Below, in pieces: positions 20,501-22,074 of a stretch of DNA of 64,000 nucleotides (positions within the stretch are counted from its first letter, which is position 1; each line of letters opens with the position of its first letter). Origin of the DNA: Escherichia phage vB_EcoM_LMP25; the sequence record MK482688.1; one strand, 5' to 3'. The notes below the pieces were generated by a model. That model did no database searches and was not told the DNA's origin. It was given only the letters and a program-made list of their open reading frames with translations. The position numbers and the translations under genes are program-made.

Positions 20501-20538
20501 TCACTTAAGAGTCTTCTAAGAGGGTTTTTAAGTGATGT
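20501..20538. repeat. Box A (38 bp, CACTTAAGAGTCTTCTAAGAGGGTTTTTAAGTGATGTG), copy 1
   Basis: Near-identical to 22037-22074 (two substitutions); a partial third copy lies at 20783-20816. Confidence 0.8.
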
Positions 20539-20544
20539 GTAGCT

Positions 20545-20612
20545 CGGTCAGGTATGGTGCGGTGGTGTAAGGTGGTGTCAGGTGTAGTATGGTGCGGTGA
20601 TGTGAGGTATGG
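20545..20612. repeat. GGTNN pentanucleotide-periodic tract 1
   Basis: ggtca|ggtat|ggtgc|ggtgg|tgtaa|ggtgg|tgtca|ggtgt|agtat|ggtgc|ggtga|tgtga|ggtat|gggta: GGT recurs every 5 nt for about 14 units. Confidence 0.8.
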
Positions 20613-20617
20613 GTAGT

Positions 20618-20643
20618 TAGTCTCAGCTACATTAAAATGAGAC
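20618..20643. repeat. Hairpin 1 (copy A): AGTCTCA-[GCTACATTAAAA]-TGAGACT
   Basis: Perfect 7-bp inverted repeat; loop shared with 22007-22032 while the stem sequence differs with compensating changes. Confidence 0.7.
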
Positions 20644-20650
20644 TTACCTT

Positions 20651-20684
20651 TTTAAAAGGTCTTTAAACAGGGTCTTTTAATAAG
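20651..20684. repeat. Box B (34 bp, TTAAAAGGTCTTTAAACAGGGTCTTTTAATAAGG), copy 1
   Basis: Near-identical copy at 21917-21950 (one substitution). Confidence 0.8.
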
Positions 20685-20749
20685 GTAGTGTCAGGTTAGG
20701 TTAGGTGCGTTTTGGTAGGGTAGGGTAAGGTTCGGTAAGGTATGGGTGG
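20685..20749. repeat. GGTNN pentanucleotide-periodic tract 2
   Basis: taggt|taggt|gcgtt|ttggt|agggt|agggt|aaggt|tcggt|aaggt|atggg: 5-nt periodicity of GGT. Confidence 0.8.
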
Positions 20750-20777
20750 ATGGTAGTAGCCACGTTAAAAATCTACC
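20750..20777. repeat. Hairpin 2 (copy A): TGGTAG-[TAGCCACGTTAAAAAT]-CTACCA
   Basis: 6-bp inverted repeat; the counterpart at 22133-22160 has TGGCAG/CTGCCA (compensatory T>C and A>G). Confidence 0.7.
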
Positions 20778-20853
20778 AAGTTTCTAAAGAGTCTTCTGTT
20801 GAGGGTTCTTTACAAACAACTTAACAATCAACTAAAGTGTGGAGCTAAATGCT

Positions 20854-21441
20854 ATGAAACTGCTAAATATCAAAATCACTGGTACTCGTCCTTTCTTGAG
20901 CCATAACGATACGCTGTCAGACCCATTAAACCCCCTGACAAAATATCACAAGTCTCTGTCCAGTAAACGTAAAAAGACTGACGAAGACTATGCGCTCTTA
21001 GCAGAAAGCCAACTGGTAACTTCTTGCTACTACGATGAGCAGCTAGGTTTTGTTATGAACGGTGAGATGATTGAGGCTTGTATCAAGTCTGGTGCAAAAC
21101 TCAATAAACTTGGTAAGGTAATTGACCGAGCCATTATGCTGACAGATGTAGTCTTCCCAATGACTATCAAGAACTGTCCAGCAAACCCACAAGAACTTGC
21201 TAAGAATCCAGACTTTATCTATGCTAAGTCTGTTAAGATTGGTACAGCACGAGTTATGAGCTACCGTCCAATCTTCCGTGACTGGTCTGTAGAGTTCGGT
21301 TTGATGTTCGATGAAGAGCAAATCACCAAAGAAGAACTCTTGATGGTTCTGGAAAATGCTGGTAACCTTTGTGGTGTAGGTGATTGGCGTCCACGCTTTG
21401 GTCGTTTTTCTGTAGAAGTTATTTCAGAAGGTAACGTTTAA
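20854..21441 (+). CDS. Hypothetical protein (first gene of the repeat-flanked cassette)
   Basis: ORF 20839..21441; start preferred at the ATG at 20854 (GGAG RBS about 10 nt upstream). No recognisable motif. Confidence 0.45.
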
Positions 21442-21443
21442 TT

Positions 21444-21884
21444 ATGAATACAAAAGCATTAGCAGCAAAGTTTAGTTACGGTGACACTGTATCACATTCT
21501 GAGATGGATACCTTCTTAGGTATTGTGAAGCCAACTTATCAAGGTGACATTGTTAAGTACGAAGATGAAATGAAGGCTTATGCACTTACACGACTAAACC
21601 GACTTGAGAAGTTTATTGAAAAGCTTCTTAAAGAAGAGAAGATTTATCTGGTTGCTTCAATGGGTGTTGGTTATCGTGTTGTTGAACCTAAGCATCAAGC
21701 AACTATTGCAAAACGTAAAATGTCTGGTAAGATTGGTCGAGCTTTAAAGCAAGCTACTCAAGCGATTGAGAATGTGAACACTATGGCACTTAGTCACCAA
21801 GAACGTTCACGACTGATTGAACAGCAAAATCACTTAGCTGCTATGAAAGCTAATATTAACAAGCAACGCAGAAAACCTTTCTAA
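21444..21884 (+). CDS. Hypothetical protein (second cassette gene; basic C-terminus)
   Basis: 146-aa ORF immediately after the previous gene; lysine/arginine-rich C-terminal helix. Confidence 0.45.
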   Translation: MNTKALAAKFSYGDTVSHSEMDTFLGIVKPTYQGDIVKYEDEMKAYALTRLNRLEKFIEKLLKEEKIYLVASMGVGYRVVEPKHQATIAKRKMSGKIGRALKQATQAIENVNTMALSHQERSRLIEQQNHLAAMKANINKQRRKPF

Positions 21885-21896
21885 GTTGACTAGGTA

Positions 21897-21917
21897 GCCT
21901 CTTCGGAGGCTCCTTTT
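21897..21917 (+). terminator. Intrinsic terminator GCCTC-TTCG-GAGGC followed by TCCTTTTT
   Basis: GC stem with TTCG tetraloop and T-run directly after the 21884 stop. Confidence 0.55.
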
Positions 21918-21950
21918 TAAAAGGTCTTTAAACAGGGTCTTTTAACAAGG
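21917..21950. repeat. Box B, copy 2
   Basis: TTAAAAGGTCTTTAAACAGGGTCTTTTAACAAGG. Confidence 0.8.
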
Positions 21951-22003
21951 CTTAGCTTGGTTAGGTATGGTAAGGTGGTGTTTGGTGTTGTAAGGTATGG
22001 GTA
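21951..22003. repeat. GGTNN pentanucleotide-periodic tract 3
   Basis: gttag|gtatg|gtaag|gtggt|gtttg|gtgtt|gtaag|gtatg. Confidence 0.75.
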
Positions 22004-22006
22004 GTT

Positions 22007-22032
22007 AATCGGAGCTACATAAAAATTCGATT
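22007..22032. repeat. Hairpin 1 (copy B): AATCGGA-[GCTACATAAAAA]-TTCGATT
   Basis: 7-bp stem with one G-T pair; loop conserved with 20618-20643. Confidence 0.7.
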
Positions 22033-22036
22033 ACAT

Positions 22037-22074
22037 CACTTAAGAGTCTTTTAAGAGGGTTTTTAAGTGAGGTG
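22037..22074. repeat. Box A, copy 2
   Basis: CACTTAAGAGTCTTTTAAGAGGGTTTTTAAGTGAGGTG. Confidence 0.8.

Follow-up and report, generated by a model that had tools for sequence, protein, structure and literature searches.

VIPR (Viral Interference Programmable Repeat) systems of phages consist of a small RAMP protein (Vipr), an accessory protein (Vap), and vrRNAs (bioRxiv 10.64898/2026.04.26.720920). In a vrRNA, 9-16 YNNGG repeats precede a 3' tail that does not vary and that, in the SUSP1 clade, forms a pseudoknot. The Vipr-vrRNA complex binds double-stranded DNA; the NN dinucleotides pair with the target, and one base, in most cases the wobble base of a codon, is skipped per repeat. The complex acts as a transcriptional repressor, and competing satellites and prophages are its natural targets. 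The vrRNAs of SUSP1 are approximately 100 nt or less in length and co-purify with Vipr, and programmable repression has been shown experimentally. The accessory gene vap is predicted to encode a DNA-binding product. In VIPR types I and V, hammerhead ribozymes are interspersed in the vrRNA arrays (bioRxiv 10.64898/2026.04.26.720920, fig. S19).

The element analysed in this study belongs to this already described system (June 2026 preprint). It is located in a window of 64,000 nucleotides (64 kb; the whole stretch of DNA that was analysed) from Escherichia phage vB_EcoM_LMP25 (MK482688.1), where it is flanked by the gene for DNA ligase (19144-20283) on one side and a conserved gene for a 127-aa product (22252-22635) on the other; locus and flanking genes are on the plus strand. 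The region 20200-22400 is 100% identical to those of Escherichia phages vB_EcoM_LMP34 and LMP33, and has 91-94% identity to those of wV8 and other Felixounaviruses. The locus is very probably a type II VIPR system, with guides, vipr, vap, and inter-guide hairpins arranged as described below. Its anatomy, the RAMP fold of its protein, the covariation of its RNAs, its orthology to the SUSP1 system, and the association of guide tracts with a Vipr gene were established in the present analysis. The homologous region from 35 related genomes was used for comparison. The L019 cassette is 100% identical to that of phiSUSP1, with one unit upstream and three downstream of the genes, as published. In GenBank, parts of the locus are labelled only as "DR_4", "repeat_region", and "possible binding site of StbAB", and the two internal genes are given as hypothetical proteins. 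The 117 cassette-bearing phage records in GenBank are apparently without functional annotation, those listed reading "hypothetical protein (x2)". The repeats listed in the Felix O1 genome paper are other ones than the boxes of this locus.

A sigma-70-type promoter, P1 (20441-20468; TTGACA-16-TATACT; 11/12 in the consensus scan), would drive the first array and two genes, in agreement with the strong promoter that an earlier note on this DNA had placed before array 1. In the related loci that bear it, P1 is 95-100% conserved just upstream of the first box. The first gene, vipr (20854-21441), encodes a 195-aa protein of phrog_4652 with no Pfam domain, which has the RAMP (RRM-core) fold and the small size (~20 kDa) of a Vipr. 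An invariant Gly/Arg-rich C-terminal motif (G170, G174, R179, G183, and F185) was found in the family alignment and is consistent with the G-loop of RAMP proteins. The second gene (21444-21884) encodes a 146-aa protein of phrog_5926 and was assigned as a vap1-like accessory gene by synteny and ~94% nucleotide identity to the phiSUSP1 cassette. Its single-sequence model had a pLDDT of 68 from a shallow family (3 relatives), and the top Foldseek hits were weak winged-helix regulators, none of them significant. Neither cassette protein had a match in PADLOC or Pfam, and no cas1, cas2, or other cas gene was found in the neighbourhood of the locus. The genes are followed by an intrinsic terminator (21896-21919), again as noted earlier, whose T-run merges into the 5' arm of the next box. 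Transcription of array 2 could come from read-through of this terminator (21896-21911).

According to the repeat finder, the boxes do not stand alone but are parts of four units, each 122-148 nt long. Each unit consists of a 39-nt box, a GGT-rich tract, and a 32-nt segment in which two interleaved stems and an A-rich loop form an H-type pseudoknot. The guide tract of vrRNA1 (20538-20612) contains 15 YNNGG pentamers, fitting the preprint's definition of a vrRNA, and its tail (20613-20644) is a type a pseudoknot (GTAG/CTAC and AGTCTCA/TGAGACT, with an A-rich loop 3). vrRNA2 has a tract of 12 pentamers (20686-20745) and a type b tail (20746-20777; GTGG/CCAC and GGTAG/CTACC). Downstream of the genes, vrRNA3 (21951-22032) comprises 10 pentamers (21951-22000) and a type c tail (22001-22032), and vrRNA4 (22073-22159) comprises 11 pentamers (22073-22127) and a type d tail (22128-22159). 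The order A-tract-tail-B-tract-tail-A' before the genes and B-tract-tail-A-tract-tail after them is that of the earlier note. Its description of array 1 as merely a 380-nt 5' leader was not borne out, as both arrays encode discrete vrRNAs, the predicted functional partners of the RAMP protein. The 35 related loci contain 1 to 6 units but only four tail types (a-d). The type b tail is positioned directly before vipr in nearly all cassette-bearing loci (undetected in L018/Moogle), and the unit with the type d tail is always the last one.

The register of the tracts was read from the pseudoknot, and a logo was made from 758 pentamers in 61 distinct units. The first position of the pentamer holds a pyrimidine (T 0.87, C 0.12), the second and third are free, the fourth is mostly G (0.80) and never C, and the fifth is G (0.97). 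Tract length was an exact multiple of 5 nt in 50 of the 61 distinct tracts and reached 19-23 pentamers in related loci. Tracts are almost wholly different between phages whose boxes and tails are near-identical. Scanning IMG/VR with the pattern (GGTNN)5GGT returned more than 120 contigs, approximately 45 of which have tracts that are complex and hypervariable. Such tracts frequently form long tandem arrays, of up to 12 or more units, with other separators, and some are immediately preceded by a promoter or immediately followed by a terminator. When the 195-aa protein family was used as a profile, a relative encoded on the tract strand and directly adjoining the tracts was detected in 28 of the 45 loci. 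The arrangement of the window, in which the vrRNAs occupy the spaces between genes on either side of vipr and share its strand, is repeated in 28 unrelated IMG/VR loci.

The boxes are conserved RNA hairpins located directly 5' of the guide tracts and between consecutive guides. Box A (copy 1, 20499-20537; copy 2, 22034-22072) is a 39-nt hairpin of 17 bp with three G.U wobbles, and Box B (copy 1, 20647-20685; copy 2, 21912-21950) is likewise a 39-nt hairpin. Both are direct repeats, with 39/41 identical positions for Box A (20499-20539 versus 22034-22074) and 38/39 for Box B. The duplication with at least 95% identity between arrays reported in the earlier note was therefore confirmed in the correct register; the second copies as given there (22037-22074 and 21917-21950) are shifted by 1 nt relative to the first ones. 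The sequence that it had called a partial Box A (20783-20816) is present and has GAGTCTTC...GAGGGTT in common with the box, but proves to be a third hairpin type, A' (20785-20812, 12 bp). A' is followed by the ribosome-binding region of vipr instead of a tract, and its sequence recurs unchanged in 21 loci.

The shared core AGGGT(C)TTTTAA is present at 20521, 20669, 21934, and 22056, as noted before. In the 64-kb window, the exact core GTCTT-N6-GGGT was found in 4 of the 5 boxes and at one unrelated site; the spacer of A' is 7 nt, hence its absence from this pattern. Other occurrences of GGGTYTTT in the window lie in unrelated contexts, and GGT-dense tracts were found only in the four places of the locus. 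Since core and tracts are confined to the locus, the boxes are neither a common promoter element nor a product of chance, and a generic promoter or genome-wide motif, which the earlier note had named as the finding that would count against it, was rejected.

The tail pseudoknot was paired in 93.2% of cells (28-39% in slid controls) with compensatory changes in 9 of 11 pairs, and the box hairpin was paired in 94.6% of cells with compensatory changes in 6 of 17 pairs between the A and B types, the covariation in both coming from few independent lineages (4 tail types and 2-3 box types). Three G.U pairs of the box are invariant and form only in the plus-strand RNA. Rfam searches of the window returned only tRNAs at gathering thresholds, and a permissive scan of the locus (E <= 1) gave no match for boxes or tails.

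The lengths of the parts bear on the role of the boxes. Tract and tail together amount to 82-107 nt, compared with 122-148 nt for a unit. Because the mature vrRNA is approximately 100 nt or less, most of the 39-nt box would be removed or lie outside the mature RNA. Hammerhead ribozymes occupy the same inter-guide position in VIPR types I and V. From position, structure, and length arithmetic, we infer that the boxes are maturation or insulation signals defining the 5' ends of the guides. As plain hairpins without an Rfam ribozyme match, they would need a host or phage nuclease for cleavage, if any takes place. In the portions of the SUSP1 preprint available in text form, no inter-guide hairpins are described and the sole "hairpin" is the tail (bioRxiv 10.64898/2026.04.26.720920). 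The boxes may be signals for the maturation of type II vrRNA arrays that have gone undescribed until now.

Alternatively, the boxes could primarily be DNA recombination sites that bound a mobile cassette and have no RNA function. In the comparison that the earlier note had proposed, the cassette is present in 117 of the 259 GenBank records holding the locus and absent from 142 (Felix O1a, finno, JH2, and others), between conserved flanks. Direct copies of Box A flank the cassette 1535 bp apart, and box and tail types have been recombined in all combinations, each of the two main box types being found with all four tail types among the 35 related loci. However, boxes also occur in cassette-less phages, one per guide, and the hairpin is kept through compensatory changes and strand-specific G.U pairs, which would be needless for a pure recombination site. 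No integrase, transposase, or target-site duplications were found at the locus. The lone guide of single-unit phages differs from vrRNA4 (vr4), so that single-unit loci are not simple recent deletions between Box A copies. That the boxes are primarily recombination sites is accordingly unlikely, and we prefer to read them as maturation or insulation hairpins. Being near-identical, they are likely, and plausible, substrates of homologous recombination in the shuffling of units and the gain or loss of the cassette. The modular shuffling of the earlier note thus stands (all box-tail combinations, 1-6 units), with recombination as its presumed cause, but the arrays are more than the boundaries of a cassette. 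Taken as a whole, its observation was confirmed and its interpretation partly supported.

It is far less probable that the boxes are promoter elements, or palindromic operators in the DNA that are bound by a transcription factor, of phage or host, regulating the early operon. In favour of this, their sequence is close to a palindrome, a strong promoter precedes them, and they have a conserved core in common. Nevertheless, as DNA the palindrome is imperfect, with 3-4 G.T positions that become C.A mismatches on the other strand, and the stem sequence differs between A and B while the pairing is kept. No other gene of the 64-kb window has a box upstream of it, and boxes come one per guide, not one per promoter. 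RNA hairpins belonging to the guides remain the preferred reading.

[quoted passage not shown] Their exact 20-base 1-nt-skip patterns gave 0, 0, 1, and 0 matches in IMG/VR. The single match, at an AT-rich intergenic site of a microvirus-like contig (L158) that no other guide matches, is probably due to chance. A SUSP1-type satellite was sought in E. coli chromosomes by means of the conserved tail-plus-box block, and no match was found.

A different picture emerged for phages without the cassette. Neither vipr nor vap is present in the 83-kb genome of Felix O1a (best tblastn E 0.35), which contains exactly one GGY tract. The 111 guides of the related loci were compared with 21 distinct cassette variants under the 1-nt-skip rule, with nulls of shuffled order. 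Scores were confined to phages that have a single unit and no cassette: their lone guides reached z 9.3, 8.3, 7.8, and 4.5, and all of them match vipr. In contrast, the 63 distinct guides of cassette-bearing loci had a mean z of 0.11 and a maximum of 3.7, and the guides of two- and three-unit cassette-less loci had no vipr match in this test.

After 15 more GenBank genomes were sampled, five independent guide families matching five vipr sites were obtained. Family 1 (Felix O1a, finno, L025, NS7, SP22, phiWec174, and SUT_S720) matches 21322-21351 on the plus strand with 19 of 20 NN bases in the window and 20/20 in other vipr alleles. Family 2 (LNA1 and RPN213) matches 21215-21247 on the plus strand (20/22 with z 7.0, and 18/22). 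The sites of the other three families cluster in the vipr region 20856-20979: family 3 (L013 and A126) at about 20947-20979 on the plus strand (18/22 and 13/16), family 4 (L031) at 20892-20921 on the minus strand (19/20), and family 5 (JH2) at 20856-20888 on the minus strand (18/22). SEP1 carries a family-3-like guide broken by one extra pentamer, and the JLBYU28 guide has no vipr match. Overall, a vipr-directed guide was found in 13 of the 15 single-unit genomes examined. In finno, but not in Felix O1a, the guide register runs into the 3' arm of the box.

For families 1 and 2, the best match across the 64-kb window and the Felix O1a genome was again inside vipr. The simple binomial expectation over the search space ranged from 1e-8 to 1.5e-3 per family. 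The skipped base is the codon wobble position in 4 of the 5 families, on either strand, the exception being family 2. Synonymous third-position differences among vipr alleles leave the match intact, and where mismatches occur, they are due either to Leu codons changed at the first position (CTN to TTG) or to K-to-R substitutions.

These matches also bear on the least credible alternative, that the G-rich tracts are a transcription-primed origin (R-loop or G-quadruplex) or a sponge RNA for a ring-shaped RNA-binding protein. The strong promoter fits it, as do periodic triplets resembling TRAP-type binding sites and a non-template strand rich in G, where GG recurs every 5 nt (two-tetrad quadruplexes could form from GG-N3). 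Against it, the NN positions hold sequence-specific information and match protein-coding targets when one base is skipped per pentamer, a RAMP protein accompanies the tracts in unrelated phages, there are arrays of up to 12 or more units, and RNP formation and programmable repression have been reported experimentally (bioRxiv 10.64898/2026.04.26.720920). Since the information in the NN bases is specific to targets and a RAMP protein goes with the tracts, the other candidate readings from before the VIPR assignment were superseded as well, namely NusB/E boxA-like antitermination (GGTCTTTAAACA versus GCTCTTTAACAA), a TRAP-like platform, a Shine-Dalgarno sponge, sigma-70 pause elements, primase-site or R-loop origins, and two-tetrad G-quadruplexes. 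The tracts are best read as the guides of a VIPR system.

The orphan RNAs retain P1, Box A, and a type d tail identical to that of their VIPR-carrying relatives. Judged by the base matches, the new point is that relatives without the cassette genes at the locus keep one guide RNA apparently aimed at vipr. Single-unit phages without vipr and vap at the locus may thus keep a strongly promoted orphan vrRNA as an anti-VIPR weapon. In the most economical hypothesis, the orphan RNA would load onto the Vipr of a co-infecting rival and turn it against its own operon. For this reading and that of the boxes as maturation signals jointly, we consider the chances of being right and wrong to be about equal. 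The available text of the SUSP1 preprint does not describe vrRNAs in relatives without vipr (bioRxiv 10.64898/2026.04.26.720920). If true, this would be a natural "anti-VIPR" strategy, and Vipr proteins would be reprogrammable in trans by a competitor. Guide-only loci directed at vipr suggest that the RNAs of VIPR itself are what phages use to counter it.

RNA-protein binding, the 1-nt-skip rule, and repression are carried over to this locus by analogy with SUSP1 (bioRxiv 10.64898/2026.04.26.720920), and the following course is proposed. P1 would transcribe vrRNA1 and vrRNA2, then vipr, encoding a small Cas7-like RAMP protein, and vap, encoding the accessory protein; vrRNA3 and vrRNA4 would supply two further guides 3' of the terminator. 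Each guide would be made of a run of YNNGG pentamers and a constant pseudoknotted tail. The boxes would be hairpins for maturation or insulation, acted upon by a host or phage nuclease. Vipr would bind the vrRNA, the free NN dinucleotides would pair with double-stranded DNA, with one target base skipped per pentamer, and the complex would repress the transcription of competing mobile elements. The value of the present analysis for the system itself is confirmatory, in that sequence alone sufficed to recover, independently, the code of the pentamers, the pseudoknot of the tail, the RAMP fold, and the association between tracts and protein. The orphan guides directed at vipr and the hairpins of the boxes deserve testing, and the inter-guide boxes are relevant to the engineering of multiplexed VIPR arrays.

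Several known systems resemble the locus in part. Type III toxin-antitoxin systems (ToxIN-like) have tandem identical pseudoknot repeats of ~36 nt, a terminator, and then an endoribonuclease toxin. This class was rejected, as the repeats of the locus are non-identical and ~130 nt long, the protein has a RAMP fold, and PADLOC and Pfam gave no match. The preQ1-I riboswitch shares the topology of the tail and was rejected on account of no Rfam match at E <= 1, a stem 2 of 5-7 bp, and a loop 2 without the conserved C that binds the ligand. In a CRISPR array, identical short direct repeats alternate with unique spacers, usually near cas1/cas2. A CRISPR array was rejected because the units are 122-148 nt long, with a conserved hairpin and pseudoknot and a pentamer repeat as the variable part, and no cas1 or cas2 is nearby. 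Class 1 CRISPR-Cas backbones (Cas7/Csm3/Cmr4 on crRNA) are a further comparison. Unlike these, the locus has no repeat-spacer array, cas1/cas2, or other cas genes, its guide information is non-contiguous (2 of every 5 nt), its constant part is a 3' pseudoknot, and it is encoded by a lytic phage.

Viruses are reported to carry mini-CRISPR arrays and RNA anti-CRISPRs. These are like the orphan vrRNAs in being guide-only loci, in a virus without the effector genes, aimed at close relatives or at the immune system. They differ in that the orphan guide is a vrRNA, its predicted target is the vipr of co-infecting relatives, and it would use a foreign Vipr. The vrRNA arrays of VIPR types I and V likewise have a structured RNA between consecutive vrRNAs, but there it is a hammerhead ribozyme, whereas the boxes are plain 39-nt hairpins without an Rfam ribozyme match. 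The closest relative is the type II VIPR system of Escherichia phage SUSP1. The two differ in host phage genus (Suspvirus for SUSP1, Felixounavirus for the window), in the distribution of guides (1+3 in SUSP1 versus 2+2 in the window), and in NN sequences, and loci related to that of the window exceed the stated 9-16 pentamers (up to 19-23). They agree in vrRNA design, in guides on both sides of the genes, in strand, and in promoter, and the window and L019 are ~94-95% identical in nucleotide sequence over two gene anchors of ~250 nt.

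The NN code (the guide bases of the YNNGG pentamers) of the lone orphan vrRNA in single-unit phages matches vipr of their relatives in 13 of the 15 genomes. The orphan guides form five families that correspond to five sites in vipr (window 20856-21351), with matches of up to 20 of 20 bases. Orphan guides were located at L033/L156-L157 (Felix O1a), L034 (finno), L168-L173, L165, L031, and L013. vipr and vap are missing at the locus in the orphan-guide phages; genome-wide absence was confirmed for Felix O1a only.

For the guides of the window itself, the sole exact 20-base match under the 1-nt-skip rule was that of vrRNA3 to positions 4031-4060 of L158 (IMGVR_UViG_3300045988_051659), a 4.4-kb microvirus-like contig. 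This match is probably due to chance because the site is intergenic and AT-rich and is not shared by any other guide.

A 48-aa hydrophobic ORF (phrog_22006; window 20287-20433, + strand) is located between the ligase gene and P1, the promoter preceding array 1. Only some relatives have the ORF; where it is missing, the ligase gene directly abuts P1. An 8-bp inverted repeat, GGTGAGTA (20457-20464) and TACTCACC (20489-20496), lies on both sides of the P1 -10 element and start region, and is retained in both Felix O1a and finno. It may serve as an operator or form a 5' stem.

Box B copy 2, the RNA hairpin preceding vrRNA3, uses as its 5' arm the T-run of the vap terminator (window 21896-21919); hence, termination after vap and formation of this hairpin would be mutually exclusive. 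At the other end of array 2, an inverted repeat of 19 bp with a T-run behind it (window 22160-22206) is situated immediately 3' of the last vrRNA tail and overlaps the following promoter, P2 (TTGACA at 22179). This element could be the terminator of array 2, with P2 embedded in it.

Elsewhere in the window, 25 tRNA genes are clustered at 49771-54846 (- strand), as expected in a Felix O1-like phage. The Felixounavirus vrRNA locus was also present at 93-95% identity in GU169904.1 (Staphylococcus phage SA1) and MG065668.1 (Campylobacter phage A126). Both records are named after non-enterobacterial hosts, which suggests that they are mislabelled or mixed assemblies.

No Vipr-family ORF was found in the fetched stretch of 17 IMG/VR loci with complex GGY tracts (L048, L049, L050, L055, L077, L085, L097, L104, L112, L116, L121, L125, L130, L135, L141, L150, and L155). 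These could be truncated loci, loci with divergent Vipr types, or additional orphan guides. In the tracts of high-GC contigs, GGC is as frequent as GGT. The preprint on VIPR systems gives 9-16 repeats per vrRNA (bioRxiv 10.64898/2026.04.26.720920); some tracts far exceed this range, with 57 and 29 pentamers in L068, 60 and 53 in L129, and 23 in L160 (KEP1), all IMG/VR loci.
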